Of a stretch of DNA of 34,691 bases, positions 15,458 through 34,691 are shown in pieces. The stretch is taken from positions 1 to 34,691 of the IMG/VR virus record IMGVR_UViG_3300028048_000053, one strand, 5' to 3'. The translations under genes were made by a program, and so were the position numbers. Origin of the DNA: a virus. The notes below the pieces were generated by a model, which was given only the letters and a program-made list of their open reading frames with translations, did no database searches and was not told the origin of the DNA. The first letter of the stretch is position 1. Every line of letters begins with the position of its first letter.

Positions 15458-15589
15458 CCCCCCTCTTTTTCTTCCCCCTGCGCCCGGGCGCAAAAATTTT
15501 TTTTCAAAACCCCCTTGACAACCCTCCAAGAGTGTGTTATAATAAAGGCACATTGAGGGTGGTGGCCTAACACCAAAGGAGAATTTGTT

Positions 15590-16195
15590 ATGAACAAGAG
15601 TGACTTTTTCGAGCGTGAAATCCAGTTCATTGAGGACATTGACCTCCAAGACTTTGTTCGCTTTTTCTTCAATGAAAGATGCGGCGACTGGTTTTGGAAG
15701 TCTGGGGCTTCCAGTTCTGGGAAATATCATCCCCAGTTCACCAAGGGCGAGGGTGGACTTGTGCGCCATACTAAAGCCGTTGTGTGGGTCTGTGAGGAAC
15801 TTCTGCGCATGAGTTCCTACGCCTACATGAAAGACATTTACAAGGACTACGCAAGGGTCGCCTGCCTGCTTCACGATACACGCAAGTATGGCGGCGGGGA
15901 TGAAGAGGATAAAAGTTATTATCCACGTCATGGTGAAGCCGCCGCAAATGATGTTGGTGTGGCGTGGCGAGAGTTTTTCCACTGTCATTCCTGCCCCGAA
16001 TTGCTTTTGATGGCTATTCACTCCCACATGGGACAGTGGACGGAAAACAGAGAGGACAGACCCTTTACCAACATTGACCGCCTGGTACATCTGTCGGACT
16101 ACATCGCAAGCCGTCCTTTCTGGGACATTCCCGACATTACCACCGAATACAACGAAGCCAATGCAAAGATGATTGAAGATTCTCTGCCTTTCTAA
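15590..16195 (+). CDS. HD-domain phosphohydrolase (201 aa)
   Basis: H..H...LLHDTRKYG...H motif arrangement typical of the HD superfamily; family-2 leader; ORF track. Confidence 0.6.
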   Translation: MNKSDFFEREIQFIEDIDLQDFVRFFFNERCGDWFWKSGASSSGKYHPQFTKGEGGLVRHTKAVVWVCEELLRMSSYAYMKDIYKDYARVACLLHDTRKYGGGDEEDKSYYPRHGEAAANDVGVAWREFFHCHSCPELLLMAIHSHMGQWTENREDRPFTNIDRLVHLSDYIASRPFWDIPDITTEYNEANAKMIEDSLPF

Positions 16196-16286
16196 TCCCC
16201 CTCCCCTCTGTCCCAGTGACAGAGGGGAAATCGCCCGGGCGAAAATTTCCTCTTGACAAGAGGCCAAAAGTATGCTATACTGTATT

Positions 16287-16400
16287 TACAATTCACGGAG
16301 AAATCCGTTTTACATACCTGCGGACTGCCGAACAGGCTTTTTCCAAAATTTCTCATGGGCCTGCATAGGATAACATGACTTTCTGCGGGAATTTTTGAAA
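16287..16400 (+). ncRNA. candidate sRNA cassette (promoter TTGACA 16255-16260 / TATACT 16278-16283; no ORF)
   Basis: only very short ORFs; hairpins CGGAGAAATCCG and CCTGCGGACTGCCGAACAGG. Confidence 0.25.
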
Positions 16401-16466
16401 ATAATACTTGACAAACAAGCACAAGTATGTTATAATAAAGGCACAAAAAGGAAAGGAGATAATAAA

Positions 16467-17075: not shown

Positions 17076-17216
17076 TAAATACCCCCGCCTTGGCGGGGGA
17101 AATCGCCCGGGCGCAAAAGTTTTTTCAAAAAGGGCGTTGACAAAGGTATAATCTTGTGCTATAATATCAATGTAAACAAAAGGGTTGCGACCTAACGCAA
17201 GAAAGGAATTGATACT

Positions 17217-17510
17217 ATGAATTTCTGGATTGTTATTTTGACCATCTACATTTTCTTTACTATTACCCTGTTCTTTGTGTCTGCCGCTCAGGCGTTCGAA
17301 GTTCGGCGGCGTATCTACGCAAAAGTTGGTAAGAATTACTATGACTCTTTTTCCAAGCGAAGCATTGTTGAAAAAATTGTTAAACTTTTAACCAGCTTTT
17401 TCTTGTCTGCCATTCCTATTCTTAACTTTTTTGTAACTTTTCATGTGATTATTCATGCTGAGGAATTAGTAAATAGTAGTGTGCAGAAATGGCTTGCAGA
17501 ACATAAATAA
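17217..17510 (+). CDS. membrane protein (97 aa)
   Basis: family-2 leader; ORF track; two long hydrophobic segments. Confidence 0.65.
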   Translation: MNFWIVILTIYIFFTITLFFVSAAQAFEVRRRIYAKVGKNYYDSFSKRSIVEKIVKLLTSFFLSAIPILNFFVTFHVIIHAEELVNSSVQKWLAEHK

Positions 17511-17643
17511 GGGTAAGGGGGCTTAATGTCCCCTGCTGCCCGGGCGCTAAAAAAATCAAAAAAAGGTATTGACAAGCGGCGCAATCTGTGCTATACTATA
17601 CACAGTTAAGGGGTGGCGGCCAAACGCTAAAGGAGATAAAAAA

Positions 17644-17808
17644 ATGTTTTACGAACTGAGAGATGCGATTTTCAATCGTCTTGCCTGCTGGCTGATGAAG
17701 CACTGTCACTGTTGGTCGATGGTGTTCTATACCGCCTGCCGCAGATACTACCCTGCCAATGTAAAATGTATGTATGAATCATGGGCTGAGGAAATGGGGG
17801 TGAAGTGA
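17644..17808 (+). CDS. small Cys/His-rich protein (54 aa)
   Basis: family-2 leader + AAAGGAGA SD; in frame with ORF 17569..17808. Confidence 0.6.
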   Translation: MFYELRDAIFNRLACWLMKHCHCWSMVFYTACRRYYPANVKCMYESWAEEMGVK

Positions 17809-19710: not shown

Positions 19711-20085
19711 ATGGTAACTAAGAATGATATTATTTCTCGCCTCCAGAAGGGTGAGGATATTGATGCTATCGCCGCAGAGTTCACTAATCTGCTCAATGAC
19801 GCGTCGAAAGAGTACACAGCCAAGCACAAGAAGAATGCGGCTGCCGAGGAGCTGGCCGTGGCGTTCAACGACTTCCTTGAGTCCTACTATCCCAACCTTG
19901 TGAAGAACGCACCTATCACTCCGGATGAGCTGATTGAGCTCTTTGATGCGCTCTCCGAGCTAGTGGAGACGCTTGGTGACCTTACGTCTATTCTGGCTCC
20001 GGGTAAGCCGGAGACTAAGTCCAAGAGCAAGGAAGATATGGATAAGGAGACAATTGAGGCGTTTCTGCGGTCGCTGCAGCTGTGA
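19711..20085 (+). CDS. hypothetical protein (124 aa); first gene driven by a class II (AT-rich) promoter
   Basis: TGATATAATATATATAGAAAATAAAGAAAGGAAT leader; ATG 19711 in frame with ORF 19618..20085; terminator 20106-20138. Confidence 0.7.
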   Translation: MVTKNDIISRLQKGEDIDAIAAEFTNLLNDASKEYTAKHKKNAAAEELAVAFNDFLESYYPNLVKNAPITPDELIELFDALSELVETLGDLTSILAPGKPETKSKSKEDMDKETIEAFLRSLQL

Positions 20086-20450: not shown

Positions 20451-21029
20451 CCCCGAAGATTAGTATTTATACTCCACCGTTCTTCCGGCATAATTATATT
20501 TTGGCTTAAAAACCCTAATCAGCCCTAATTCCATACTCTATACATCACGCTTTGTTATCTTACTATTACTCTTTATCTTGGAAACATCAATCAGTTTTTT
20601 AAATTCAATTTTATTTTCTTTATTTATCTAATTATAAAAAATTAATTCTTTACTACATGTTTCTATACCCCTTTTATGTTCTTCCCATCTTTCCTCAAAA
20701 TCTCTCATTGTCATACCTACATATACTAATTCATCATTTTCATAAATACCATAGACTCCATAAGATATAGTCTTTTCCTATTTAATATGATATTTTTTCT
20801 CATAAATCTTTACTTCTTGCTATAAAGCATAATAAAAATTATCTATTTCTTTCTATGCTATCGGAATTAAATGTTTTAAAATTATCTAAATATAATGATT
20901 TAAATCTCCTTTACTCTTTTTCGTTTGAGTTTGCTTAAAAAAATAACTAACAATATTCTAAAAAGAATCTAAATCTATAAACTCCCAGTATTTACCACAA
21001 GACAATATATAACCTGGCAGATTACTTCT

Positions 21030-21227
21030 CTATTCTTTAGTTAAAAAACAAACATAAGAATCATGACTACAACTATCTAATTTATAATTACTATCTAATT
21101 TTGGCATCTGCTTAATTATATATTGGTATACAATATACATATTTTTTCGATTCAAACTTTTATGCTCACATTTCATACATTTTTCAAATTCTTCTTGTGA
21201 AACCAACTTTATAACCTCCTCATACAT
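21030..21227 (-). CDS. possible small Cys/His protein (65 aa)
   Basis: C-terminal part of minus ORF 21030..21548; upstream part of that ORF is the low-complexity repeat array. Confidence 0.3.
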   Translation of the reverse strand: MYEEVIKLVSQEEFEKCMKCEHKSLNRKNMYIVYQYIIKQMPKLDSNYKLDSCSHDSYVCFLTKE

Positions 21228-21239
21228 TACCGAGCATCC

Positions 21240-21510
21240 TAAAAATACAAAACTTGTTTTGTATTTTTTTGTACAAAAACTTGTTTTTTGTACAAAAAGT
21301 TGTAAAAATACAACATTTTTGTTGTATTGTAAGACTAAAGATAGCTTATACAAAAAATACAAAAATACAAAAATTCTTGTATCGTAGAGTCTAAAAACTA
21401 CAATTTTCGTACAAAAAACATAAGCATTTATACAAAAATACATAATAGATAAATACAATAAAAATACAATCGTACAATTTTCATACAAAAATTCGTACAA
21501 AAAATCTATA
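21240..21510. repeat. array of GTACAAAAA / TACAAAAATAC direct repeats interleaved with palindromes
   Basis: palindromes TACAAAAC-ttg-TTTTGTA, GTACAAAAA-cttg-TTTTTTGTAC, AATACAACA-ttttt-GTTGTATT read directly. Confidence 0.65.
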
Positions 21511-21511
21511 A

Positions 21512-21886
21512 TCAAAATATAGCATTGGGGTCCTTGCGTTGTACCCATCCTTTTTTATGCTGTATAGTATTCAACTTTACTCCAAAATAATCGGCTATCT
21601 CTTGCGCGCTCATATTATTTCTAGCCATTTTGTATACTTCGGCATCGGTAACTTTGAGACGAACTTTGCCTCCGTTGCGCTTTTCTTCATACTTAGCAAT
21701 ACTGACATCTATACGCCCCTTCAATAAATTTACATAAGAGTTTATACTGGGGTCATCCGTATATTTCTATTCTAAACGACAGCCATATCTGATTAAATCA
21801 GCAATGATTTTGTCCTAACTTTCCACTGGCAACTAATCAATAGCTTCTAACCAATCACTGTGTACAATAAAAGTATTATCAGCCAT
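21512..21886 (-). CDS. HTH protein (124 codons; possible ArpU/RinA-like sigma-region-4-type regulator) with three in-frame TAG codons
   Basis: ATG 21886-21884 preceded by AAGGGGGA SD; in-frame TAG at 21833-35, 21815-17, 21767-69 (plus coordinates); no TAA/TGA for 124 codons in AT-rich DNA; C-terminal ORF 21512..21724 alone has no start or SD. Confidence 0.55.
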
Positions 21887-23756: not shown

Positions 23757-24485
23757 TTGCATACCGTGGTTGCCAAATCATTCCAGTCCTTAGAGATTCT
23801 TGACGAGCCCCATGCAGTCGGCGGCAAGCCCGCTTTGTATGTTACAGTGCGCACCAAGACTGGCGGTACTCGTGTAGTTAGATGGTATAGCGATAAAGAG
23901 TATGCCAAGATGTATCCTGGCGAGGCTCCTGCGGCGACCCAGCCTCTGCGACCTCTCAAGGAAGTCCTTGGCTTTGAGAAGGGCTACATTACTATCTTCA
24001 AGGGAAATACCTACGAAGATAGGGATTATTTCAAACTCAATGCGGCTCGCTATCACAAGTTGTGGGGGTGGTATTTCATTTCTACCGACGAGCTTCCCAC
24101 CGATATTCCCGAGGATGTAACCCCCATTCGGCTTAATTGGGAAGATATTAGTACCGATGATAACACCCTAAAGAATGATGCGGCAATTACCGCTGCTGTT
24201 GAATCTCTTATCTATGAACCCGATAACAGCGAGTATCAGGGTGAGGTTGGGGATAAGCTCGAACTTGTCGTTGTGGTAGAAAAAGCTGTCGATCTCGATG
24301 GCTACTTCGGTCGTTCTCGAATGCACATCTTTAGGGACTATGACGGGAACTGCTATGTCTGGACCACGTCCGCGCGGAACTGGGAACCGCAGACCGAGCA
24401 TCATATTATCGGAACCGTAAAAGACCATAAGCTGTACAAAGGAACCAAGCAGACCGTGCTCACGCGCTGCCGGAGTCTAGATTAA
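23757..24485 (+). CDS. hypothetical protein (~240 aa; start TTG 23757 or, more likely, GTG 23766 which sits 9 nt after AAGGAG)
   Basis: ORF track; no ATG with SD nearby. Confidence 0.65.
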   Translation: MHTVVAKSFQSLEILDEPHAVGGKPALYVTVRTKTGGTRVVRWYSDKEYAKMYPGEAPAATQPLRPLKEVLGFEKGYITIFKGNTYEDRDYFKLNAARYHKLWGWYFISTDELPTDIPEDVTPIRLNWEDISTDDNTLKNDAAITAAVESLIYEPDNSEYQGEVGDKLELVVVVEKAVDLDGYFGRSRMHIFRDYDGNCYVWTTSARNWEPQTEHHIIGTVKDHKLYKGTKQTVLTRCRSLD

Positions 24486-24499
24486 GGAGGGATAAGACG

Positions 24500-24652
24500 A
24501 TGCGCAGATACTACAAATATTGCGTAATGGGCAGAGAGCGCAATAAAGACACGGGCATTCACCCAATTAGCATCCATATCACTTTTTTGGGAGCTGTGAT
24601 TGGATATATGTTTGCCCTGCAAGATTTTAAAGATGTTTATTTGATTAAGTAA
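24500..24652 (+). CDS. small hydrophobic protein (50 aa)
   Basis: TAAGGAGGGATAAGACGATG; stop TAA 24650-52; below ORF-track cutoff. Confidence 0.5.
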   Translation: MRRYYKYCVMGRERNKDTGIHPISIHITFLGAVIGYMFALQDFKDVYLIK

Positions 24653-24665
24653 GGAATTGATGTAA

Positions 24666-25829
24666 ATGGGTTCTAACTCAAAACAGTATTTGATTACAAA
24701 CTGGAAAGCCCTTTTGGAAGACTTTTCAGAACAGGTTAAAGAAGGGCGCTATACAAAAATGCCCTACACAGAATGGCGGGAATTTAATTTGGTAAAGCCG
24801 CCTGAGCGATTTTATTTCTACACTCACACTCCCTCTGAATCGGAGTGGTATGTAAGTTTCCAGTTCAATGGTAAGCATCATACCTATAATGTAAAAACAG
24901 AAGAAGGAGAAGACTCTTTTGGTGATTTTCTTCTTGATGTAGGTAAAAATATAGCTCATTGTGATTACGCTTGCTTGCCAGAAGGCAAAATTTACGAGGT
25001 TAGGATACCAGCCTCGGCTTATCCGTCACTTAATTGTAGTGATACAATAGAATTTACCATCCAAGATGAAGATTGGTTAAAAGAATGGAATAGTATAATT
25101 TCTACCCCTAATAATATAACTATTGATAACACAACAAATAAAAAGGAGGATACAAAAATGAACGACATGTTTAACTTTGATTTTGGCCCTGCTTCTGGCT
25201 ACAATTTCCGTATGAGTCCCTACGGTCTTGCGGTCCGCACCGAGAAGAACGGCTGGGTTGCTTATAATACCCAGACCAATGAGCTCATGGATGTCAATGT
25301 GCTTAACTTTGACATGGATGGCATGATTTATAAGATGCCTGTTGCACTTGCGGCCATCCAGAAGGGCGATATTCTGATGCATTGCGGCAAGCCCGTCTTT
25401 GTGCGCGGTGTGGGGAGTGACACCGTCCAGGTGGTAGACTACGCAAACGCCTCTGTGTCCAGTATTCTGCCCGTGAAGAGCCCGTTCGGGTTTAATTTCT
25501 TCGTTAAAATTGTTTCTCTGATGGACTTCCAGAATATCAACGCCAGCAATGAGAATCCTTTTGGCAATATGCTGCCTTTTATCATGATGAAGAATTCTAA
25601 GCACTCTAGCGACGAGCGTCCTGACATTGACCCCATGGTACTCATGTTTATGATGAATGGTGGCAATGCTAACTTTATGCAGAACCCCATGATGATGTAC
25701 CTCCTTCTGAGCAAGGGGGAGAATGGCGATATGCTCCCTTTTCTTCTCCTGACCGGAATGGGCGCGTCTACTACCCCAGTAGCTTCCGGTCAGGCCCCTG
25801 TCGCTACGTCCAACCAGGCGAACGCATAA
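24666..25829 (+). CDS. hypothetical protein (387 aa) with Met/Phe/Pro-rich low-complexity C-terminal half; strong in-frame internal SD+ATG at 25158
   Basis: ORF track; internal AAAAGGAGGATACAAAAATG. Confidence 0.65.
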   Translation: MGSNSKQYLITNWKALLEDFSEQVKEGRYTKMPYTEWREFNLVKPPERFYFYTHTPSESEWYVSFQFNGKHHTYNVKTEEGEDSFGDFLLDVGKNIAHCDYACLPEGKIYEVRIPASAYPSLNCSDTIEFTIQDEDWLKEWNSIISTPNNITIDNTTNKKEDTKMNDMFNFDFGPASGYNFRMSPYGLAVRTEKNGWVAYNTQTNELMDVNVLNFDMDGMIYKMPVALAAIQKGDILMHCGKPVFVRGVGSDTVQVVDYANASVSSILPVKSPFGFNFFVKIVSLMDFQNINASNENPFGNMLPFIMMKNSKHSSDERPDIDPMVLMFMMNGGNANFMQNPMMMYLLLSKGENGDMLPFLLLTGMGASTTPVASGQAPVATSNQANA

Positions 25830-25936
25830 CTTTCGCAACAAACTAATCCTAAAGGGAGAACAAAAGTTCTCCCTTTACTTTTATAAAAAAATATTATATA
25901 ATATATATAGAAAGTTAAGAAATGGAGGCTTCACAA

Positions 25937-26122
25937 ATGGATAATTACAGAGACGACATTAATCGCATCCTGCGCAACGGCATTGAAATTGCCTGGGACA
26001 AGGGGTACATGGAAGACGATGTTTCGGAATTTGTGCAGAAGCATTTTCCCGACGAGGAAGATGCGGGTTGGGAAAAGGCTTATGAGCTTATTCGTGAAGC
26101 CATGCATACATATTTTGATTAA
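25937..26122 (+). CDS. hypothetical protein (61 aa)
   Basis: class II promoter; AATGGAGG SD; ATG 25937 in frame with ORF 25922..26122. Confidence 0.65.
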   Translation: MDNYRDDINRILRNGIEIAWDKGYMEDDVSEFVQKHFPDEEDAGWEKAYELIREAMHTYFD

Positions 26123-26142
26123 TTAAGAGGGATTAATAATCA

Positions 26143-27825
26143 ATGCAAGATGTTTTTAGCGGATTGACAGAGAAAGATTTAAGAGATATACAGGTAGTAC
26201 GTGCTTATTTTGGCGATAAAGACGAGAGTGACCTTCTCGCACCCTCAGCCTGGTTGCAGCATTGGCAATATAACAAGAATCAGTATTTAAAGTTTCTTTT
26301 TAAGGACAACCTTATCCTTGAGCGCCAAGTTTCTTATCACCAGGAGCAATATGAGCTGTCTCATGTGATTTCCAGAGTCGTCTTCAATGATTTTTGTACC
26401 TATGGCGCTACTGACGAGCAGAAAAAGGCTATGGATTGGAAAACCGCCATGGAAAATTTTTACAGGCCACTCAGAGATTCTTCTAATCCAGAAGTTCAGC
26501 GCGCGTGGTGTGATATTGGCTACTTAATGGAGTGCTGGTATTTGGCCAGTAATGAATTTACCCCAGATGGCGATACGCGCCCCAGTATTGTCCCATATGG
26601 GGATGGAAAAACCTTTAAGATTCAGCCGCATTGTAAGGTAAGTAAAGCTCTTGGGAAACTTAGTCAGATTGCGGGACTACAAGATGAATGGGAGCCCATT
26701 AGAATCAAAATTTCGCAGGTACTGAATCAGAGTAAACTTACAGGAACGCTGCACCTTTCCATCCATCCCATGGATTATTTCACTGCTAGTCTGAACGATT
26801 ATGATTGGCAATCTTGTATGAATTTTATTGATGGAGATTATCGTCGTGGTGTAATCGAAATGATGAATTCTCCTATGGTCGTAGTTGCATATTTGACCGG
26901 AGCCAATAAGAAGTTTCAGGTAATTAACGATGTTTATGCCAATAACAAAAAGTGGAGAGAATTTTTTATCATTACTCCAGAAATGATTAGCGGCGTAAAG
27001 GGTTATCCATACTGGAGCACGGAGCTTGAAGCACAAACTATCAACTGGTTGAGAGAGCTAATTGCGGCCGCCCATGACGAATTGCCAGAGCAGTTCCAGA
27101 AAGTAACCTGGATAGATGGTGTACAAAAGTTTCACGTTGGTGAAAAAAACGAGCTAAAAGGCATTGACCACCCCGTTAGCTTTGACATTCAGTGCGGCCC
27201 CGCCATGTATGATGATTTTTATCATGGTGAAGTGTATCAAGCTATTTTCTCTGATAAAATACCTATGACATACTATCTTGACTATTCTGGCTTTAGCGAG
27301 TGTTTAATCTGCGGCAATGAGTGTGATGAGGACGACGAACCGAATGACGTAGTCTGCGGCTGTTGTAACGATTATGTCCATTGCGTAGGGTGCGGAGATA
27401 GGTATCATAAGGGTGACATACATATAGTTGAATTTGATGGGCAGTATTATTGTTCTTACTGCTATGATAACTTGACCCGATGTGAATCATGTGGAGAAAT
27501 AATAGGTAATGACTACAATGTTTATTACTTCACAAAAACAGCAGAAAATGGAAATAAATATTTGCTGGAGGAAGGCAAAGTTTTATGTGAAGATTGTCTT
27601 GAAAATTACTTAAAAAATCCAGAGGCTGTTAAAGAAATTACCCCTCCATGGATATACTACGCAACTTGGCATACTATAAGCGCCATAGATGTAGATGATT
27701 TGACCGAAGAGGGACAGCAAGAATTATTCAATCGACCACTTGATGAAGTTTTCAATGAATTCAGCTGCTGGAATCTTAATACCAAAGAGGGGCCGAAACC
27801 CCTGGATGAAAAAATCCCTTTTTGA
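26143..27825 (+). CDS. large hypothetical protein (560 aa) with C-terminal cluster of CxxC motifs (multiple Zn-ribbons)
   Basis: ORF track; AAGAGGGATTAATAATCAATG. Confidence 0.75.
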   Translation: MQDVFSGLTEKDLRDIQVVRAYFGDKDESDLLAPSAWLQHWQYNKNQYLKFLFKDNLILERQVSYHQEQYELSHVISRVVFNDFCTYGATDEQKKAMDWKTAMENFYRPLRDSSNPEVQRAWCDIGYLMECWYLASNEFTPDGDTRPSIVPYGDGKTFKIQPHCKVSKALGKLSQIAGLQDEWEPIRIKISQVLNQSKLTGTLHLSIHPMDYFTASLNDYDWQSCMNFIDGDYRRGVIEMMNSPMVVVAYLTGANKKFQVINDVYANNKKWREFFIITPEMISGVKGYPYWSTELEAQTINWLRELIAAAHDELPEQFQKVTWIDGVQKFHVGEKNELKGIDHPVSFDIQCGPAMYDDFYHGEVYQAIFSDKIPMTYYLDYSGFSECLICGNECDEDDEPNDVVCGCCNDYVHCVGCGDRYHKGDIHIVEFDGQYYCSYCYDNLTRCESCGEIIGNDYNVYYFTKTAENGNKYLLEEGKVLCEDCLENYLKNPEAVKEITPPWIYYATWHTISAIDVDDLTEEGQQELFNRPLDEVFNEFSCWNLNTKEGPKPLDEKIPF

Positions 27826-27906
27826 TTTTTTTAAAAAAATAATATATTATATATATACAAGGTAAGAAAAAAATAAAAATTAAATTTTTGAAAGGACTTG
27901 TGAATT

Positions 27907-28320
27907 ATGGAAAAGAAAATTACGAAGCGGAATGTGCTGGATGTTCTGGTTGCGGCCGTCGATGCCGGCGACATTGTTCTGGACACCTACGGTGATGTGA
28001 CTGCCGAGGATGTGCGCAACTACGCCGTCAATGAGATTGCGCTGCTCGATAAGAGGGCTGAGAGAGCCAAGGAGCGTGCGGCCAAGACCAAGGCCGATGG
28101 TGATGAGCTGACTGAGGTGCTGTATGAGGCACTTGGCGCCGACTTTGAGCCTATTCCCGACATTCTGGCTCGCATCGAGGGTGAGGATATCACCGCTGCG
28201 AAGATTGCCGTCCGCCTGAAGAGACTGGCTGACGATGGGCGCGCTGAGCGTTCTGAGATTAAGGTCAAGGCTGCTGACGGTGGTAAAAGCCGCACGTTGG
28301 TTGCGTACCGTAAGGCGTAA
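27907..28320 (+). CDS. hypothetical Ala/Asp/Glu-rich protein (137 aa); GC-rich coding sequence under an AT-rich class II promoter
   Basis: ORF track; overlapping minus ORF 28020..28295 is antisense to this GC-rich gene and judged spurious. Confidence 0.7.
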   Translation: MEKKITKRNVLDVLVAAVDAGDIVLDTYGDVTAEDVRNYAVNEIALLDKRAERAKERAAKTKADGDELTEVLYEALGADFEPIPDILARIEGEDITAAKIAVRLKRLADDGRAERSEIKVKAADGGKSRTLVAYRKA

Positions 28321-28415
28321 TCCGTAGACCGCTTGAATGGAGAGAGGTTAATCCTCTCTCCATTTGTTTTTTATAAAAAAATATTGTATAATAAGAGTAT
28401 AAGGAGTGATAAAAT

Positions 28416-29192
28416 ATGAAATATAGTATTTCTGGTAGATAGCCCAAAGAATTGTTACAAAAAGCGGATGAAATTTTCATTGAGTACAGAGATAAAGATG
28501 TACTTTTTGATTATGTAGAGTTATATCCCGATAAAAAAATTGTGATGTTTATTCCAAAAGATACAGAAGTAGATTGGGATTTACTTAAAAGTTTTAATGA
28601 AAAACTCAATCTTACCTTGGAGATAGAACAAATTAAAGATGCAGAACTGGTTAATTTTCATTGGTTTTGGCACTTTCCGGTAACTACATATTTTGAATTA
28701 GATGGTATTCTTGCGCTTAATACATCGGAAGTTTTAATTGGTGGGCCATTGTTCTTTGACTTAGAGCGAGTAAAAGAGTTGTGCAAGGATATTGAAATAA
28801 GAGCCGTACCAAATGTTGCCTTTGACGCATATATTCCAAGAACAAATGGCATATGTGGCACTTATATCCGTCCAGAAGATGTGGTAACATATGAACCATA
28901 CATTAACACTCTAGTTTTTAAATATGAAGATCTAAAAGAAGAAAGAATGTTATTCCAAGTTTACAAAGAGGATCAGAAGTGGCCAGGTAATCTATATTTT
29001 TTAATTAAAAATCTCAACAAGCATGTAGATAATAGAGGGTTTGAAGAAGATTTCGCAAGCACTCGCCTCAACTGCCGCCAGACCTGCTGCCGCAATCATA
29101 TATGCCATTTTTGTGAATCTTACATTACTTTTATAAACACCATAGATAAAAATAAAAACTATCTAAAGGAACAATTAAATGACGATAAGTAA
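28416..29192 (+). CDS. hypothetical Cys-containing protein (258 codons) whose codon 9 is TAG
   Basis: class II promoter with AAGGAG-N8-ATG 28416 in the standard position; TAG 28440-28442 in frame; ORF 28452..29192 continues in the same frame with no SD of its own. Confidence 0.55.
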
Positions 29193-30120
29193 GAAAGATA
29201 TTGACTTATTAAAAGGCTTATGCTATCTGTCTGAAACCAAAATATTAAAATTATTTTCAGACTTTCTAACCCAGCATCAATACTCTCCCATTGTAACAAA
29301 AGACTATTTGATTGCCGAGGGGGATCTTCCAATTCTTCTGGTTGCTCATGTAGATACAGTTTTTCCAAAAGTACCAACAGAGATTTATTTCGATAGTGAG
29401 AAAAATGTCATGTGGAGTCCTAATGGATTGGGCGCAGATGATCGGGCCGGAGTGTTTGGTATAGCTAAGATTTTACAGCATGAAAGCAACTTGCGGCCGC
29501 ACATTCTTCTCACGACTGGAGAAGAGAGCGGAGGAGTTGGAGTATCTGAATTGATAACCACATTCACAGAGTCACCTTTTTTAGAACTGAAATATGTTAT
29601 TGAACTCGATAGACAAGGATTTGATGAGTGTGTTTTCTACGATTGTGATAATCAGAAATTTATCAATTATGTAACAAGTTTTGATTTTGTAGAAACAATA
29701 GGATTGTTTTCTGATATATCTATTCTTTGTCCAGCTTGGAATATTGCCGGAGTAAATCTTTCTATCGGATATATAGATGAACATTCATATATTGAAAGAC
29801 TCTTTGTAAATAAAATTTATGAAACTATTGAAAAAGTTATAACAATGTTACAAGATTATGACAATATAGATTGTTATAAATATTTTTCAAATTCTTCACG
29901 TTTGGTCGATATGGATTGTTGTGACGTGTGTCACAAAAAGACTATAGATTCAGTATTGACCGTCGCACAGAGTCTAGACTCCGCCAATACCATGTTCTAT
30001 GCGTTAGTATGTCCATCTTGCGCCCAGCGTTGTATACAGTATTGTAAGAAATGTAAAACAGCTTTTATTGACTCATACAAAAATGATTTATGTTATTCAT
30101 GTAGAAAGGAGACAAATTAA
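29179..30120 (+). CDS. M42/M20-type metallopeptidase-like domain fused to a C-terminal Cys-rich Zn-ribbon region (313 aa)
   Basis: LLVAHVDTV, GLGADDRAGV, LLTTGEESGGVG and LDRQG motifs resemble M42 (FrvX/TET-like) metal-binding residues; ORF track. Confidence 0.55.
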   Translation: MTISKKDIDLLKGLCYLSETKILKLFSDFLTQHQYSPIVTKDYLIAEGDLPILLVAHVDTVFPKVPTEIYFDSEKNVMWSPNGLGADDRAGVFGIAKILQHESNLRPHILLTTGEESGGVGVSELITTFTESPFLELKYVIELDRQGFDECVFYDCDNQKFINYVTSFDFVETIGLFSDISILCPAWNIAGVNLSIGYIDEHSYIERLFVNKIYETIEKVITMLQDYDNIDCYKYFSNSSRLVDMDCCDVCHKKTIDSVLTVAQSLDSANTMFYALVCPSCAQRCIQYCKKCKTAFIDSYKNDLCYSCRKETN

Positions 30121-30125
30121 ATAAT

Positions 30126-30428
30126 ATGCGTGGAGCAATTGCGAAAACTCAAGTAGAAGATATTATTGCCAAAGCATTTGGGGATAAGTATATCGGAACA
30201 TATGATAAGAAATTGTATGTTTGGGCCGATGATGGCGGTGAAGAGGTACAAATCTCCATCGCGCTGACCTGTCCAAAAGTACCAGTGGGCGCAGAAGCCG
30301 TGCAAAAGCCTGCGACTATGGATTTTGAAAATAATCCAGACTTTGCGGTCCCCGCACCTGCGGCCGCAGAGATTACACCAGAAGAGACCGCAACTTTACA
30401 GGATATGCTAAAAAAGCTAGGTCTGTAA
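30126..30428 (+). CDS. hypothetical protein (100 aa)
   Basis: ORF track; ATG 5 nt after upstream stop. Confidence 0.65.
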   Translation: MRGAIAKTQVEDIIAKAFGDKYIGTYDKKLYVWADDGGEEVQISIALTCPKVPVGAEAVQKPATMDFENNPDFAVPAPAAAEITPEETATLQDMLKKLGL

Positions 30429-30556
30429 TTGCTACTGGACAAAAGAGATTAATTGAGTTTCGTTAAAAAACTAGTTTAGCGAAACTCAATTTTCCTTTTT
30501 GATTTTTTATAAAAAATAATATATAATATTTATAGAAAGTTAAGGAGGGAAAAGGT

Positions 30557-30805
30557 ATGACACTCCGAGATATCCTTGAGGGGCATCCTCCCGTAGATCG
30601 AATCCAGTGGAGAAGTAATGCTCCAAAAGAATGGGAAGATGAGGAGCCAGACGGCATCTTCTGTGGCTATTGCGCTTGGGATGGTGAAAAACTCGTTTCT
30701 CTAGACGGTGATTATTATTCTCTAAACACAGAAATTTATCGTTATGAGTGGGAAAAAGATGGCTCGCTAACCTACTGGGAAAAAGTGGAGTGGATTTCTG
30801 GATAA
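30557..30805 (+). CDS. hypothetical protein (82 aa)
   Basis: class II promoter; TAAGGAGGGAAAAGGTATG; ORF track. Confidence 0.75.
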   Translation: MTLRDILEGHPPVDRIQWRSNAPKEWEDEEPDGIFCGYCAWDGEKLVSLDGDYYSLNTEIYRYEWEKDGSLTYWEKVEWISG

Positions 30806-30834
30806 ATATATGAAAGTAAAAACTATCGCTCCTA

Positions 30835-30863
30835 TTGATTTTTTATAAAAAATATATTATAAT
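30835..30863 (+). promoter_or_regulatory. class II promoter TTGATT-N17-TATAAT + ATATATAGAAAATAAAGAAAGG
   Basis: -35 30835-30840; -10 30858-30863. Confidence 0.65.
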
Positions 30864-30896
30864 ATATATAGAAAATAAAGAAAGGGGAAATGAAAA

Positions 30897-31049
30897 ATGA
30901 TTATTGAGCATGACACTTACACCGGTGAGATTCGCGCAGAGTGTGAGGGATGTGGCCGGCAATGGCTTTTTGAAGAGTGCGAAGTAATTCTTTCTCCTTG
31001 GCCGCACGTAGAATGTCCTGTATGCGGCGAATTTATACCCTTATTTTGA
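30897..31049 (+). CDS. Zn-ribbon protein (CEGCG...CPVCG), 50 aa
   Basis: ATG 30897; the alternative ATG 30890 hits a stop after 5 codons; TGA 31047-49. Confidence 0.55.
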   Translation: MIIEHDTYTGEIRAECEGCGRQWLFEECEVILSPWPHVECPVCGEFIPLF

Positions 31050-31118
31050 GACGCTTGGGCAAAAAAAGTTAGGCAATAACACCATTTTTTTATATTTATA
31101 TGAAAGGATGTGTGACAT

Positions 31119-32012
31119 ATGCCAAGATATAAAGATGAAACTGGCAATAAGTATGGAAAATTAACCGTTCTATACCCTACCGATAAGAGAAATTCCAAAA
31201 GAGAGATTTTTTGGCATTGTAAATGTGACTGCGGAAATGAGTGTGATGTTTTGGGTAGATTACTGCGAAACGGGAATACTCGTTCTTGTGGTTGTCTAAG
31301 GATTGGCTCAAAAACATTGGATGAAATCGGTAATAGATATGGAAAATTAACCGTAATTTCGTAGGCCAAGGATAAAATTAATAATCATGTTGCGTGGAAT
31401 TGTTTGTGCGATTGCGGAAATAATATTATAGTATCTGGCACAAAATTACGCTCTTAGGAAATCACGGCTTGTCCAACTTGCCGCCAATTGCAAAAGCCAA
31501 AATTGACAGATGTGAATGAACAATATGGTGATCTTACTGTTTTGGAATCTGCAGGACGAGATAAGTATAGAAGATTATTGTGGAAATGTCGATGCTCTTG
31601 CGGAAATATTTGTATTGTTGCCGGCATAGATTTAAGGTCTGGACAAAAAACTAGCTGCGGCTGTAAAAAAACCCTATCTAAAGGGGCAGATAAAATAAGA
31701 CAAATTTTACAAGAAAATAATGTTCATTTTACCTAGGAAAAGACTTTTGATTCGTGTAGATTTCCGGATACCAACTAGCTCGCTCGTTTTGACTTTTATC
31801 TTCCCGAACAAAATGTTTTAATTGAGTATGATGGAAACCAGCACTTTTTTTATACAAATCATCATTGGGATACCAAAGAACATTTTGAATATACAAAAAG
31901 ACATGATGAATATAAAAATCAATGGTGTAAAGAAAACAATATAAAATTAATTAGAATTCCGTATTACGATATAAAGCAAATATCTTATGAAAAGATATTG
32001 GCTCTATTCTAA
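31119..32012 (+). CDS. homing-endonuclease-like protein: three YG.LTV..W.C.C.CGN...SCGC Zn-finger repeats + C-terminal Vsr/DUF559-like PD-(D/E)XK domain (FDFYLP...IEYDG.QH); four in-frame TAG codons
   Basis: single frame maintained 31119-32012 (ORFs 31119..31364 and 31488..31736 share the frame); TAG at 31362-64, 31455-57, 31734-36, 31776-78; no TAA/TGA until 32010. Confidence 0.5.
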
Positions 32013-32023
32013 GGAGGATAGCT

Positions 32024-32512
32024 ATGGAATTAAATGTATTTAAACAGTATTACTCTCCTTGGAACCATATTACCAACTGGCCTCGCAACATCAAACTCTT
32101 TTTCCGCAGATATAAATGGGCTTATCAGAGAGCAACTCGTGGATATGCAGATTGTGACGTCTGGGATTTAGACCACTTTTACACCAATCTTTTTGTGGGC
32201 AGCTTAAATCGGTTGGCAGACATTACGGTTAGCTATCCAGGTGATGAAAATTTTCCCACTTACGAAGATTGGATAAGCTATCTGCGCGAGATGGCCCAGT
32301 TGTTTAGTCGGTCGTTAGAATCAAATAATTATTATCCCACTCCGGCGGAAGAGAAGTGGTGGGATTGGAGTCAGAAGCATGGATGGAAAGACGAAAATCC
32401 TTTTAACGATGACATGATAAAGGAAGCTCATGAGAACGCTCTCAATAGAGAAGAGGATTTTAACAAAGCATGGGAGATGATGGGACGTGTTTATGGACAC
32501 TTGTGGGACTAA
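32024..32512 (+). CDS. hypothetical Trp-rich protein (162 aa)
   Basis: CTAAGGAGGATAGCTATG; ORF track. Confidence 0.75.
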   Translation: MELNVFKQYYSPWNHITNWPRNIKLFFRRYKWAYQRATRGYADCDVWDLDHFYTNLFVGSLNRLADITVSYPGDENFPTYEDWISYLREMAQLFSRSLESNNYYPTPAEEKWWDWSQKHGWKDENPFNDDMIKEAHENALNREEDFNKAWEMMGRVYGHLWD

Positions 32513-32687
32513 AGATTACTTTATTGTTTCTGAGAATGAGGGCAAGTGTATGATTTGCGGCCATGAGACAAATCTCATAGACCCATGTGCTGAAGCTTAT
32601 CTGTGTTCGCCTGAATGCGAAGAAAAACTCATCCAGATGATGGTAGAGTATGAAAGAGAACATCCGATGGAAATTGATTTTTTATAA
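32493..32687 (+). CDS. possible Cys-rich small protein (start uncertain: GTG 32487, ATG 32493 or ATG 32548)
   Basis: ORF track 32487..32687; overlaps the end of the upstream gene; weak SD. Confidence 0.35.
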   Translation: MDTCGTKDYFIVSENEGKCMICGHETNLIDPCAEAYLCSPECEEKLIQMMVEYEREHPMEIDFL

Positions 32688-32702
32688 AAAATAATATATA
32701 AT
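32674..32702 (+). promoter_or_regulatory. class II promoter TTGATT-N17-TATAAT driving the tRNA cluster
   Basis: -35 32674-32679; -10 32697-32702. Confidence 0.6.
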
Positions 32703-32729
32703 ATATATAGAAAGTTAAGAAAGGAATAT

Positions 32730-32816
32730 GGGTCGGTATCCCGTAGCAGGTAGCGGTTCTGGCTGTAAATCAGGTGTCTAGCGACTCGGTTGGTTCGATC
32801 CCAACCCGGCCCACCA
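32730..32816 (+). tRNA. tRNA-Tyr (GUA), class II long variable arm, CCA encoded
   Basis: manual fold: acceptor GGGTCGG/CCGGCCC, anticodon loop CTGTAAA, variable stem GTC/GAC, T arm GTTGG-TTCGATC-CCAAC. Confidence 0.7.
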
Positions 32817-32909
32817 ATCGCCCTATTGGCAGACTAAAACAGAATCTATGCAATAGTATTGGCGCTGTGTCTACTGATATGGCGTCACTGTATGGTGAAG
32901 GAGATTATT

Positions 32910-33095
32910 ATGCATACCTTTCATTCTCAGGATAAATACAATTTCCATCACAATGGAGATTTTTCCGGTGACGTGATAATCACTAAGGATGATGACACTA
33001 ATTTTGAAATTGAAATTAGTAGTCAAGCTCTTCTTGAATATGCTCGTTATGTAATTGACTCTGTTCTTACAGAAAAAATTGAAGACATTATGTAA
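32910..33095 (+). CDS. hypothetical protein (61 aa) between tRNA-Tyr and tRNA-His
   Basis: GAAGGAGATTATTATG; in frame with ORF 32859..33095. Confidence 0.55.
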   Translation: MHTFHSQDKYNFHHNGDFSGDVIITKDDDTNFEIEISSQALLEYARYVIDSVLTEKIEDIM

Positions 33096-33096
33096 T

Positions 33097-33174
33097 GGTG
33101 GGAGTAGCTTAGTTGGCTAAAGCACCAGATTGTGGCTCTGGGGACCGCGGGTTCAAGACCCGTCTCTCACCCCA
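33097..33174 (+). tRNA. tRNA-His (GUG) with encoded G-1 pairing to C73, CCA encoded
   Basis: manual fold: acceptor GTGGGAG/CTCTCAC, anticodon stem CCAGA/TCTGG with loop TTGTGGC, T arm GCGGG-TTCAAGA-CCCGT. Confidence 0.7.
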
Positions 33175-33215
33175 TTTATGCCTCCTTAGCTCAGCTGGTC
33201 AGAGCACGCGGCTGT

Positions 33216-33682
33216 TTGCCTGACCTTACATTCTTGATGAAAAAGAAAAATGAATAGTAAGCAAAAAGGCAATATTACTGAATTAGAAACAATGTTAGCG
33301 TTTTTAAAACATGGTTTTAATGTTTTAACTCCTTATGGAGATTGTGAAAGATATGATTTTGTAGTAGACGCTAACAGAAAGTTTTATCGAATTCAGAGTA
33401 AAACAGCAAGCACAGAAGACGATGGAGCTTCGTTTAAGTTTTCTTGTAGGAGCTCAAATCGTCAAGATGGTAGAATAGTCCATCACCAATATACAAAAGA
33501 TGAAATTGACTATTTCGTAACTTCTTTTGAAGGAAAATGTTATTTAATTCCAGTTGAAGAATGTGGTTGTGATAAACGACTTCGTCTTTTTCCTACTAAA
33601 AATGGACAAACAAGAGGAATAAGCTGGGCAAAAGATTATGAAATGGAGGAAGTAATCAAGAATTGGTAAGCTGATGTGCAAG
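33216..33682 (+). mobile_element. 467-bp insertion in the tRNA-Asp anticodon loop carrying an endonuclease-like ORF; group-I-intron-like boundaries (5' exon ends in T, insertion ends in G)
   Basis: boundaries inferred from tRNA cloverleaf; only ~47 nt of the insertion lie outside the ORF, so the intron class is unresolved. Confidence 0.5.
33250..33669 (+). CDS. putative homing endonuclease of the PD-(D/E)XK / Hjc-like fold (139 aa) encoded inside the tRNA-Asp insertion
   Basis: pattern E11..LK.GF.V..P.GD..RYDFVVD....FYRIQSK resembles small restriction-endonuclease-fold nucleases; ORF track. Confidence 0.45.
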   Translation: MNSKQKGNITELETMLAFLKHGFNVLTPYGDCERYDFVVDANRKFYRIQSKTASTEDDGASFKFSCRSSNRQDGRIVHHQYTKDEIDYFVTSFEGKCYLIPVEECGCDKRLRLFPTKNGQTRGISWAKDYEMEEVIKNW

Positions 33683-33906
33683 CAACCGCGGTGTCGTAGG
33701 TTCGAATCCTACAGGAGGCGCCAGGCCCGTGGATCCGAGGGCACAGTATCGGACAAAATACGCTGGCATATCGTAGAGAGTGCGCAATCTCAAATATGCG
33801 ATACCGCTATTCGTTGGGGCGGGATATAAATGCAGCAACGACAGGTCGCTTGAACCTGATTGATCCTGTCGGCGGTACGGGAGAAGAAAAGCATCCGCTG
33901 TTTTAT

Positions 33907-33982
33907 AGGGGATTGGTGTAGTAGGGAGCATCTGCGCCTCCAAAGCGTTAGAGAGAGGGTCCGAGTCCTTCATCCCCTGCCA
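33907..33982 (+). tRNA. possible tRNA-Trp (CCA), weak (several G-U pairs, T-loop TCCGAGT)
   Basis: acceptor AGGGGAT/ATCCCCT perfect, discriminator G, CCA encoded, anticodon loop CTCCAAA; D and T arms non-canonical. Confidence 0.35.
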
Positions 33983-34256
33983 ATAGTGAGTCGTTTAAGC
34001 AAGACTGCGGCCATGGTAACGCAATGTTGGGTAGCGACCGGCACCAACCTCACTATTATATGCCTCGGTAGTTTAGCAAGTAAAACGGTGGACACATATT
34101 TTTATGTGGCTGCAAGTGGATGGAGCGTGGCCGTCTCGGGGCACCAACGGCAAGGTGGCGTAGCGTGAGCTACAAGTGCGAATGACTGAACGCACTAAAA
34201 ACTGGCAATGGGCAAGCCTTCTGTATAGTAAAACCAAGAAGTCTATTTTTTAATAT

Positions 34257-34331
34257 GCCGGGGTCATATAGTGGTTAGTATGCGGAACTGATAATTCCGT
34301 CATGGCAGTCCGACTCTGCCCCCTGGCACCA
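34257..34331 (+). tRNA. tRNA-Ile (GAU), CCA encoded
   Basis: acceptor GCCGGGG/CCCTGGC, anticodon stem CGGAA/TTCCG with loop CTGATAA, T arm GGCAG-TCCGACT-CTGCC. Confidence 0.7.
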
Positions 34332-34413
34332 TAAATCTCAGCTGAGATAGGGATAGCTCTGCGTTTGGAGTAGCATTTCAGTCGTCGGGGGCGGAGCGCT
34401 GAGATTTTTATAT

Positions 34414-34489
34414 CCCGCTGTAGCACAATCGGTCAGTGCCGGCAACTTATAATTGTCAGATGCTGGTTCAAATCCAGACAGCGGGACCA
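34414..34489 (+). tRNA. tRNA-Ile (UAU) (AUA decoder), CCA encoded
   Basis: acceptor CCCGCTG/CAGCGGG, D arm GCAC..GTGC, anticodon stem GGCAA/TTGTC with loop CTTATAA. Confidence 0.55.
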
Positions 34490-34569
34490 AAAACCTTGTT
34501 AGTTAGTGGAGAATAGCAGCGAGGTTTGCATTAAATTAATAAAGACACATACAGCAATTTATACTTGAA

Positions 34570-34640
34570 AGTATATTAGTCCAATGGTAGGACGCAAAAG
34601 TTTTAATTTTGAAGAATTGGTTCAAATCCAATATTTACTT
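34570..34640 (+). pseudogene. degenerate tRNA-like sequence (anticodon loop GTTTTAA, Lys-UUU-like) lacking CCA, with an acceptor mismatch
   Basis: D stem GTCC/GGAC, anticodon stem CAAAA/TTTTG, T arm ATTGG-TTCAAAT-CCAAT; acceptor AGTATAT/ATTTACT has 1 mismatch. Confidence 0.3.
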
Positions 34641-34691
34641 TTTGGTGTCTTGATTTTTATAAAAAAATATAATATAATAATTATAGAAAAG

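Follow-up and report, generated by a model that had tools for sequence, protein, structure and literature searches.

The split tRNA-Asn gene and its endonuclease

The stretch of DNA analysed here, called the window below, is the whole of IMG/VR virus record IMGVR_UViG_3300028048_000053, 34,691 nucleotides in length. Near its end, the plus strand carries a cluster of tRNA genes, and one of these is split within the anticodon loop by an insert that encodes a homing endonuclease of the I-Ssp6803I family. This endonuclease cassette without a ribozyme is the most unusual feature of the cluster, but the original prediction, made from the letters of the window, gave it a passing mention only. The parts of the split gene, under the assignment argued below, are as follows.

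33180..33216, plus strand: 5′ exon of tRNA-Asn(GUU), with the acceptor, the D arm, the 5′ strand of the anticodon stem and nucleotides 32-36 (CUGUU)
33217..33683, plus strand: mobile insert of 467 nt between tRNA positions 36 and 37, with 33 nt before the open reading frame (ORF) and 14 nt after it
33250..33669, plus strand: PD-(D/E)XK homing endonuclease of 139 aa, I-Ssp6803I family (Pfam PF11645, PHROG 5018, PDB 2OST)
33684..33723, plus strand: 3′ exon of tRNA-Asn, with A37 and A38, the 3′ strand of the anticodon stem, the T arm, the acceptor, G73 and CCA

An identical endonuclease protein is found on a 171,985-bp metagenome contig (ENA ERZ27252073, k141_3465) and on a 1-kb Logan contig. The former is treated below as locus L003, which runs along that contig from window position 23250 on and reaches 9 kb beyond the window end; PHROG matches and gene layout give the contig a phage-like character. 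Other loci are likewise referred to by L numbers.

In a single sequence, the position of the junction is ambiguous, and Ala, Asp or Asn anticodons are all possible. The original prediction had recognised a split tRNA around the ORF, which is correct, but had called it Asp, which is not; this came about because of the ambiguity, and ARAGORN run with introns errs in the same way, printing Asp(gtc), i(37,467). A homologous insert is present in the cultured Enterococcus phage EFP01 (KY549443), whose split tRNA-Asn lies at about 105.24-105.79 kb, and the uninterrupted allele is found in 36 other Enterococcus phage records, where it is mostly annotated as tRNA-Asn and is one base off the Asp-type join. 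These uninterrupted alleles place the insert after nucleotide 36, between CUGUU and AA. With this junction, the joined exons (33180-33216 and 33684-33723) give a perfect cloverleaf, a tRNA-Asn of 77 nt, whose best matches, with 80-82% over the full length, are genes annotated as tRNA-Asn in SPO1-like and other phages. The exact joined 20-mer, CGCGGCTGTT followed directly by AACCGCGGTG, occurs in intact tRNA-Asn(GTT) genes of 13 viral contigs, which are thus empty sites; the uninterrupted target site of tRNA-Asn is GAGCACGCGGCTGTTAACCGCGGTGTCG. A pattern search with the sequence of the 5′ exon gave no matches. A separate, weak Asp(GTC) gene is present in L003, and a true Asp-targeting member of the family, L165, has A37 C38 as compared with A37 A38 here. 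From these sequence comparisons, we assign the split gene as tRNA-Asn(GUU), with the insert between nucleotides 36 and 37.

The endonuclease matches PF11645 (PDDEXK_5) with E = 5e-31 over residues 1-132 and 2OST_A with E = 1.9e-6. It resides in its own predicted target type, a tRNA anticodon loop, of which empty sites exist. I-Ssp6803I itself is encoded by a 150-codon ORF in a 655-nt self-splicing group I intron of the tRNA-fMet gene of Synechocystis PCC 6803 (PMC1995217). It is a tetramer with a 23-bp pseudo-palindromic target, and a 2012 review placed the close homologues of its family in cyanobacteria (PMC3384342). The window protein resembles it in family and in small size (139 vs 150 aa), and in both cases the host gene is a tRNA, the site lies in the anticodon loop adjoining the anticodon, and the target is the pseudo-palindromic anticodon stem-loop. 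The cuts made by I-Ssp6803I reportedly leave 3-nt 3′ overhangs that flank the anticodon, according to Bonocora and Shub in 2001. The two elements differ in that the Synechocystis one is a 655-nt self-splicing intron with one target tRNA, whereas the insert here has 467 nt, 47 nt of them outside the ORF, and no ribozyme, and the phage cassettes have many target tRNAs.

Since the only characterised relative resides in a group I intron of tRNA-fMet (PMC1995217), and the 5′ exon here ends in U, self-splicing has to be considered for the window insert, either as a group I intron or by another ribozyme, whose core would be hidden in the ORF or formed together with the tRNA body. We regard this as extremely improbable. 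Only 47 nt of the insert (33 + 14) lie outside the ORF, as against about 200 nt in the 655-nt Synechocystis intron (PMC1995217), and there is therefore no room for a group I core. No Rfam intron family matched the insert at E ≤ 10. Synonymous-site identity among 42 distinct ORFs is flat along the coding sequence, at 0.56-0.79, except for the last 8 codons, where it is 0.88; thus, no RNA core, which would appear as a block of suppressed synonymous change, is hidden within the coding sequence. The insert starts with UGCCU and ends with AGC, so that its last base is C and not the terminal G of group I introns, and the pairing partner of U36 is an A close to the insert's 3′ end, not a 5′ guide. 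The subfamilies of the cassette have no sequence core in common. A group II intron was rejected as well, with the start UGCCU instead of GUGYG, the end AGC instead of AY, the length of 467 nt and no Rfam match. In favour of self-splicing, bacterial group I introns in tRNA genes, such as that of Azoarcus tRNA-Ile, occupy this same site, just 3′ of the anticodon.

The cassette family and the RNA rod at its junctions

Further members of the family were found with the window protein and an alignment of its relatives as queries. They comprise 30 loci on IMG/VR viral contigs, 80 of 169 loci in metagenomes and 11 loci in metagenome-assembled genomes (MAGs). About 90 loci from viral contigs, metagenomes and MAGs, as well as phage EFP01, have the same arrangement as the window, and the cassettes in phage tRNA genes number more than 100. 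Junctions were placed by tRNA geometry alone, five bases after the 5′ strand of the anticodon stem and two bases before its 3′ strand, with U33, R37 and an ARAGORN call on the joined product also required. This yielded 82 distinct junction sets, with inserts of 415-484 nt, mostly 460-485, whose orientation is always that of the tRNA. By this automatic placement, of which about a dozen cases are mis-registered (including two Lys calls that are EFP01-type Asn genes), the targets are Asn-GUU (47), Ile-GAU (15) and Lys-UUU (6), with Met-CAU, Thr-UGU and a UUA anticodon in addition. The MAG loci have Ala-UGC, Asp-GUC and Ser-UGA as targets.

The ends of the insert are able to pair with each other and with the anticodon. 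The elements of this pairing in the window are predicted as follows.

33214..33219, plus strand: helix H1, 5′ strand, formed by the anticodon GUU and the first three insert bases (ugc); pairs with 33678-33683, from covariation
33220..33224, plus strand: internal-loop strand CUGAC, opposite CUGAUGU; conserved in the Asn/Lys subfamily
33225..33238, plus strand: helix H2, 5′ strand, in the 5′ untranslated region of the endonuclease gene; from the minimum free energy (MFE) fold of the whole precursor
33651..33669, plus strand: helix H2, 3′ strand, in the last codons and stop codon of the ORF; from the MFE fold and the raised synonymous identity (0.88) of the last 8 codons
33671..33677, plus strand: internal-loop strand CUGAUGU
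33678..33683, plus strand: helix H1, 3′ strand, gcaAGC, whose last three bases, the last of the insert, pair with the anticodon

The last three bases of the insert complement the anticodon in 68 of the 82 junction sets, while permuted triplets gave a mean of 32.6 and a maximum of 46. The combinations of anticodon and insert end are GUU/AGC, GAU/AUC, UUU/AAA, CAU/AUG, UGU/AUA, UGC/GCA and UGA/UCA. Over 78 aligned junction sequences, the anticodon stem and the 6-bp H1 are 94.7% paired, and all 11 pairs vary on both sides. The covariation score of 0.778 compares with 0.179 after shuffling (0 of 500 shuffles as high), and controls in which the strands were slid gave at most 0.13. The internal loop that follows H1 has CUGA opposite UGAUG in the Asn/Lys subfamily; the main Ile subfamily has another loop there.

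The joined insert ends have a median fold z of -3.1. The fold of the full 544-nt window precursor contains the acceptor, D and T arms together with the anticodon stem, H1 and H2 (z = -5.25, with 0 of 100 shuffles as stable). The predicted precursor is a normal cloverleaf in which the anticodon stem is prolonged into a rod of about 25 bp, with the endonuclease ORF in the distal loop. Within H1, the two junctions are on opposite strands and are separated by 3 bp. A bulge-helix-bulge was considered for these junctions and rejected, as there are no bulges, and the junctions stand in an unbroken helix flanked by a 2x2 loop (C32 U33 / A37 A38). The strands of the internal loop resemble known motifs, 3′ CUGAUGU being similar to box C and 5′ CUGA to box D, and it is possible that the loop forms a k-turn or a tandem G·A loop. 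The same CUGAUGU also resembles the CUGAUGA of the hammerhead ribozyme, but it belongs to a two-strand internal loop, has U at A9, and is absent from the Ile subfamily, so a hammerhead was rejected.

Near-identical endonuclease genes are found in exons that are 21-24% apart, and homing of the cassette is evidently active, recent and frequent, to judge from these sequences. In L068, the 3′ exon is identical to that of the window for 12 nt and stands beside a 5′ strand of the anticodon stem that does not match it, a chimera that looks like the product of co-conversion. The exons of other loci are defective: the acceptor strands of L066 do not pair, L017 has an 8-nt duplication in the D arm, the anticodon stem is broken in L096 and L094, and L009 and L085 have C33 instead of U33.

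Several loci show other arrangements of the same genes. L020 (1-6417) has at least four split tRNAs in 6.4 kb, among them two different tRNA-Lys(UUU) and a tRNA-Thr(UGU), and each carries a different endonuclease lineage, with 71%, 45%, 44% and 36% identity to that of the window. In L160, a free-standing endonuclease gene (1201-1709, 54% identical) ends about 12 nt upstream of an intact tRNA-Asn(GTT), which may be an ancestral or an alternative lifestyle of the family. In L163 (989-1688), an intact tRNA-Ala(UGC) is located directly upstream of a tRNA-Ala(UGC) split by an endonuclease gene; this pair may be a resistant copy beside an invaded one. The endonuclease ORFs of L026 (3001-3411) and L031 (2998-3408) contain in-frame TAG at the same conserved positions (VL*PYGD and P*xEC), and therefore their host phages would read TAG as sense, so that the cassette is also present in TAG-recoded phages. 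For L029, L134 and L121, the family junction rule gives a class I split tRNA with the loop UUUUAAA and the anticodon UUA, which would read the stop codon UAA, although a run of A and T makes the junction ambiguous in these three; an intact tRNA with the anticodon tta was called by ARAGORN in L032.

Unspliced cassette or protein-dependent intron

We suggest that the locus as a whole is best explained as a tRNA operon whose tRNA-Asn was invaded by a ribozyme-less endonuclease cassette and whose spacers are non-coding, an explanation that we find reasonably probable. From what is known of the enzyme family, the endonuclease would cut uninterrupted tRNA-Asn alleles of co-infecting phages at the anticodon, and repair would then copy the cassette in, along with some of the flanking exon sequence. 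For the transcript, we judge the chances to be evenly balanced that the cassette is an unspliced selfish element whose expression comes from the transcript of the tRNA operon, the tRNA body together with the rod being a scaffold for the folding, processing and stability of the endonuclease mRNA. The interrupted tRNA-Asn would then not be restored, because nothing in the sequence appears able to splice it. In favour of an unspliced cassette, there is no ribozyme, the evident homing is recent, L160 has a free-standing relative beside an intact tRNA-Asn, and the exons of several loci could not give a working tRNA even if they were joined.

Several observations weigh against an unspliced cassette. 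In 13 loci of 4.7-6.4 kb, which have 3-14 other tRNAs, the anticodon of the split gene is never found in a second, intact tRNA, and the split gene therefore seems to fill the isoacceptor slot. One phage, that of L020, has no fewer than the four split tRNAs described above within 6.4 kb. H1 starts exactly at the last base of the insert and follows the anticodon in at least nine tRNA species, which is a tighter fit than a mere stabilising stem needs. The apparent Asn-to-Ile lineages L032, L125 and L161 retain AGC with an A·G mismatch, and the main Ile lineage has AUC; this apparent repair of the mismatch suggests selection on that pair. Most exons are perfect cloverleaves, for which recent homing could equally account.

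The same observations lead to a second explanation, in which the insert is a true protein-dependent tRNA intron. An endonuclease would cut both junctions in the rod, and an RNA ligase would rejoin the loop and restore tRNA-Asn. The cutter could be a protein of the host, of the phage, or the intron-encoded PD-(D/E)XK protein, and the ligase could be RtcB or an Rnl-type enzyme. This would fit the covariation of H1 with the anticodon across at least nine tRNA species, its beginning exactly at the 3′ junction, the lack of a redundant isoacceptor near the split gene in 13 of 13 loci and the presence of up to four split tRNAs per phage. Furthermore, the cassette is always co-linear with the tRNA, relatives within the clade encode an RNA ligase (PF09414), and an ORF within a stem-loop made by the intron ends is also the architecture of archaeal protein-spliced introns with homing endonucleases. 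However, there is no bulge-helix-bulge at the junctions, which lie in a continuous helix, and the 43 kb examined of the 172-kb contig contain no RNA ligase gene. The exons of several loci are unable to form a working tRNA if joined, and the internal loop differs by subfamily and lies 6 to 8 bp from the junctions, so it is not a fixed recognition or measuring element. We know of no tRNA-splicing endonuclease in bacteria or phages. Thus, we put protein-dependent splicing forward only tentatively.

Put in general terms, this second explanation would mean that phages carry widespread tRNA introns, neither group I nor group II, whose removal depends on proteins; the PD-(D/E)XK enzyme encoded in the intron might itself cut the RNA copy of its DNA target, and an RNA ligase would follow. 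We consider that conceivable, but rather unlikely. If true, it would be the first case of tRNA splicing by proteins beyond the archaea and eukaryotes. Archaeal bulge-helix-bulge introns, in which two 3-nt bulges are separated by a 4-bp helix, may carry LAGLIDADG endonuclease genes. The phage cassettes share with them the absence of a ribozyme, the pairing of the anticodon region with the intron and an endonuclease ORF that is looped out from a stem of the paired intron ends. They differ in that there are no 3-nt bulges 4 bp apart, the junction is at 36/37 and not at 37/38, and no splicing endonuclease is known in the hosts; any splicing of the phage cassettes is proposed here from sequence.

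Returning to the unspliced selfish cassette, two other systems offer parallels. The free-standing GIY-YIG endonuclease SegB of phage T4, located in a tRNA cluster, cleaves within or close to tRNA genes and takes adjoining tRNA sequence with it (PMC2330249; PMC8421152). Here too, a homing endonuclease is found in a phage tRNA cluster, and L160 has a free-standing member of the window family beside an intact tRNA-Asn, but SegB lies between intact genes, whereas the cassette interrupts the anticodon loop and has ends that are fitted to the anticodon by base pairing. The precursor is also similar to the engineered tRNA scaffold for RNA expression, in which the cargo is said to be placed in the anticodon arm (Ponchon and Dardel, 2007). 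In both, a cloverleaf, here a predicted one, carries the cargo RNA on an extended anticodon stem, which would give RNase P/Z processing and protected ends. Unlike the engineered scaffold, the cassette would be natural and its cargo a translated mRNA, as far as can be told from the sequence.

We found no description in the literature of ribozyme-less PD-(D/E)XK cassettes in phage tRNA genes with anticodon-matched ends. What is not routine here is the location of I-Ssp6803I-family genes inside phage tRNA genes without an intron; the tRNA cluster, with its Ile(UAU), is ordinary. Previous knowledge of the I-Ssp6803I family came essentially from a single characterised member, which resides in a self-splicing intron of a cyanobacterium. 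Enzymes of this family, without a ribozyme, are now seen to be encoded within the anticodon loop of phage tRNA genes of at least nine kinds, in metagenomes of the human gut and the rumen and in a cultured Enterococcus phage, by inserts that carry an RNA helix tailored to the anticodon. Either phages tolerate selfish elements that disable phage tRNAs and employ the tRNA body as a scaffold for expression, or there is a new protein-dependent route of tRNA splicing in bacteria. Standard tRNA finders miss such genes or mis-name them (Asp for Asn), and phage tRNA inventories are therefore incomplete.

The surrounding tRNA island and its spacers

The other features of the studied interval are given below. 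The tRNAs were called with ARAGORN and with Rfam RF00005, which has a gathering score of 29 bits.

32674..32702, plus strand: promoter-like site TTGATT-17-TATAAT in a repeated AT-rich phage motif; 10/12 consensus matches
32730..32816, plus strand: tRNA-Tyr(GUA), class II, CCA encoded; ARAGORN, in Rfam tRNA-Sec only, 28.6 bits
32910..33095, plus strand: ORF of 61 aa between Tyr and His, no function assigned; gene called on the source contig, no Pfam family
33097..33174, plus strand: tRNA-His(GUG) including G-1 (ARAGORN 33098-33174); Rfam 60.8 bits
33724..33906, plus strand: non-coding spacer of 183 nt, no function assigned; no gene called, absent from the closest relative
33907..33982, plus strand: tRNA-Trp(CCA), CCA encoded, T loop UCCGAGU; ARAGORN, Rfam 43.4 bits, cloverleaf
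33983..34256, plus strand: non-coding spacer of 274 nt, with a tRNA-like stretch at 34062-34146 and two GGCACCAAC motifs
34257..34331, plus strand: tRNA-Ile(GAU), T loop UCCGACU; ARAGORN, Rfam 52.5 bits
34332..34413, plus strand: inter-Ile spacer of 82 nt, closed by a 10-bp stem; 1 difference from the closest relative, L146
34414..34489, plus strand: tRNA-Ile(UAU); ARAGORN, Rfam 57.5 bits
34569..34641, plus strand: tRNA-Lys(UUU), AT-rich, without encoded CCA; ARAGORN, Rfam 60.4 bits
34650..34678, plus strand: next copy of the promoter-like motif, TTGATT-17-TATAAT, at the start of the following unit

The original prediction had seen a class II promoter at 32674, and TTGATT-17-TATAAT is indeed found there and recurs at 34650. 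The AT-rich motif around it has at least nine copies on the plus strand between 22385 and 34650 and is present in many related loci as well. The copy at 32674..32702 is likely the start of the tRNA transcription unit. No terminator-like site was found on the plus strand of 32674-34649, which looks like one promoter-to-promoter transcription unit. L003 has 14 tRNAs by ARAGORN and 20 at a lowered threshold, and the studied interval is therefore the first part of a tRNA island of more than 11 kb. The setting is the ordinary tRNA operon of a large gut or rumen phage.

Tyr(GUA), His(GUG) with its G-1, Ile(GAU) and Ile(UAU) were all called by ARAGORN where they had been predicted. Tyr matches only the tRNA-Sec model, and weakly, because of its long variable arm. 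The G-1 of His is encoded in the genome at 33097, and C73 follows the acceptor stem. The Trp gene had been taken for a weak or marginal candidate, but at 43.4 bits against the gathering score of 29 it is a sound tRNA. The Lys-like sequence does lack an encoded CCA, as had been noted; it is not degenerate, however, being among the best-scoring tRNAs at 60.4 bits and lying in a 100%-identical window in L146. The proposed decoding of AUA by Ile(UAU) agrees with AUA being 36 of the 148 Ile codons in the neighbouring plus-strand genes, and with L146, where the same anticodon is kept and the anticodon stem has a compensatory change from A-U to G-C. This tRNA had been described as uncommon in bacteria; since it is found in L146, L019, L034 and L159, it is usual for these phages and not remarkable. 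The predicted absence of a tRNA with a CUA anticodon (amber suppressor) was borne out by ARAGORN in the window and in the next 9 kb of L003; such tRNAs are present in the related loci L009 and L012. The T loops of Trp and Ile(GAU) both have UCCGA, with C at position 55, where U is usual, and the Ile(GAU) gene at the same place in L146 is a different one, whose loop is a normal UUCGA.

The closest relative of the window, L146 (ENA ERZ27256903), has about 96% identity with it across 6.8 kb of flanking genes. Where the window has the block from Tyr through the 61-aa ORF, His, the split Asn and the 183-nt spacer to the 5′ half of Trp, L146 has a small ORF, a different, intact tRNA-Asn and unrelated sequence, and the similarity resumes inside the Trp anticodon stem. 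As judged from this comparison, the tRNA island is a mosaic of exchangeable cassettes that would recombine frequently. Directly upstream of Ile(GAU), at a place corresponding to window 34249-34256, L146 has an extra 153-nt element (7576-7723). It has an acceptor like that of transfer-messenger RNA (tmRNA) or tRNA-Ala, GGGGCAU.../...AUGCUCCACCA with G3.U70, and a T arm, with about 80 nt of other sequence between; the Rfam tmRNA model gives 13.4 bits (E = 0.006), and ARAGORN calls the element at a low threshold only.

The remainder of the original prediction concerned an unexplained, GC-rich and structured spacer of about 530 bp. Without the Trp gene, this consists of the 183-nt and 274-nt spacers, and about half of it is not conserved even in L146. 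It has no credible ORF, as had been stated: the ENA gene caller finds no gene, and a 102-codon ORF runs across tRNA-Trp. Structure above background was not found, with fold z-scores of +0.34 for 33724-33906 and +0.56 for 33983-34256. An Rfam search of 279 nt gave no match at E ≤ 10, including ROOL, GOLLD, YrlA and tmRNA, and also no tRNA, and self-comparison revealed no internal repeat. The 10-bp stem between the two Ile genes, AAATCTCAGC/GCTGAGATTT, is present in the MFE fold of 34329-34416 as predicted, but with z = -1.5 for this spacer it is not significant. An 85-nt tRNA-like stretch does exist, although at 34062-34146 rather than at 34049-34133. Its parts are a D arm, an ACCA end, a T-like arm with an atypical loop and an acceptor stem in which two pairs are G.U, and the position of the anticodon arm is taken by a 4+6-bp hairpin with a UUUU loop. 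The ARAGORN call is obtained at the 80% threshold (-ps80) only, at which 44 of 400 dinucleotide shuffles of the spacer (11%) gave a call as well. Two further candidates were rejected. A remnant of a cassette that has lost its ORF would be at odds with the lack of a CU/AA loop and of matching stems in the tRNA-like stretch, and permuted tmRNA or YrlA calls in the window are low-threshold ARAGORN noise with no Rfam match.

We think that the spacers are most likely inter-tRNA processing spacers and decayed tRNA-like sequence. Two points speak against spacers that are inert, namely that 33987-34220 is kept in L146 with two differences (1 substitution and 1 indel), and that ROOL and YrlA-like RNAs are present in this island in related phages. 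It is conceivable that a functional non-coding RNA is encoded at 33983-34220, such as a tRNA mimic or a Y-RNA-like decoy processed from the tRNA precursor; the acceptor, D and T-like arms with their encoded ACCA, a second ACCA-ended hairpin, and, in related phages, a D-arm-like 20-mer 85% identical to that of the window would be consistent with such a role, as would the extra tmRNA-like or tRNA-like element of L146 at the adjoining site. We find this doubtful. The conservation of 33987-34220 at first resembles ultra-conservation (99% vs 83-91% for its neighbours), but the whole locus has a background identity of about 96%, with many 100-nt windows at 98-100%, so the identity with L146 is no evidence of constraint. 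Nor do the z of +0.56, the lack of an Rfam match in the 279-nt search and the ARAGORN calls in 11% of shuffles favour a functional RNA. Beyond L146, no homologue of the spacer was found by blastn and nhmmer in about 180 loci or by pattern scans of the viral collection.

Taken together, the original version of the locus, with Asp as the split tRNA, Trp marginal, the Lys-like sequence a degenerate pseudogene and the 530 bp a structured RNA, is hardly credible. The Asp call printed by ARAGORN and the local stems that exist in the sequence are in its favour, but Asn is established by the intact alleles, Trp and Lys score 43 and 60 bits, and the structure is not above that of shuffles.

In the relatives L148 and L151, whose upstream protein is 54-55% identical to that of the window, ROOL RNA is found at 3342-3963 (317 bits) and 3676-4279 (312 bits), respectively, and sub-threshold matches to YrlA (Y RNA-like) of 31-33 bits at 8008-8119 and 7652-7761. 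These lie within a conserved non-coding block of about 900 nt in the tRNA islands; the window and L003, in contrast, match none of the models for ROOL, GOLLD and YrlA, types of RNA that occur along with tRNA genes in phages. A search of IMG/VR with the upstream protein of the window, of 162 aa, gave two distant loci, both without tRNAs. Homologues of this protein (48% identical) are also encoded in L154 and L155, where an RNA ligase gene (PF09414/PF21189) follows about 5 kb downstream, at 11494-12498 and 7899-8903, respectively; this ligase has no Enterococcus phage homologue in the phage collection.

On the minus strand of window 1-22000, there are almost no long ORFs under the standard code, and reading TAG as sense lengthens many ORFs of that strand, such as those at 8970-10136 (388 codons) and 20460-21554 (364 codons). 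The plus-strand genes at 23757-33095 contain TAG 0 times in 2,367 codons. This fits a TAG-recoded, perhaps late, module beside a standard-code module in the window, as far as codon usage can indicate. Gene-free gaps are present in L003 at 15260-16420 and 17170-17731. Downstream of the window, L003 has further tRNA-like genes that are called by ARAGORN at the lowered threshold only, Ala-UGC (15537-15615), Asp-GUC (16283-16358) and Ser-UGA (19778-19866). A second tRNA-Lys(UUU), at 13240-13314 on the plus strand, is the best-scoring tRNA of the window at 68.4 bits and stands alone within the apparently recoded module.

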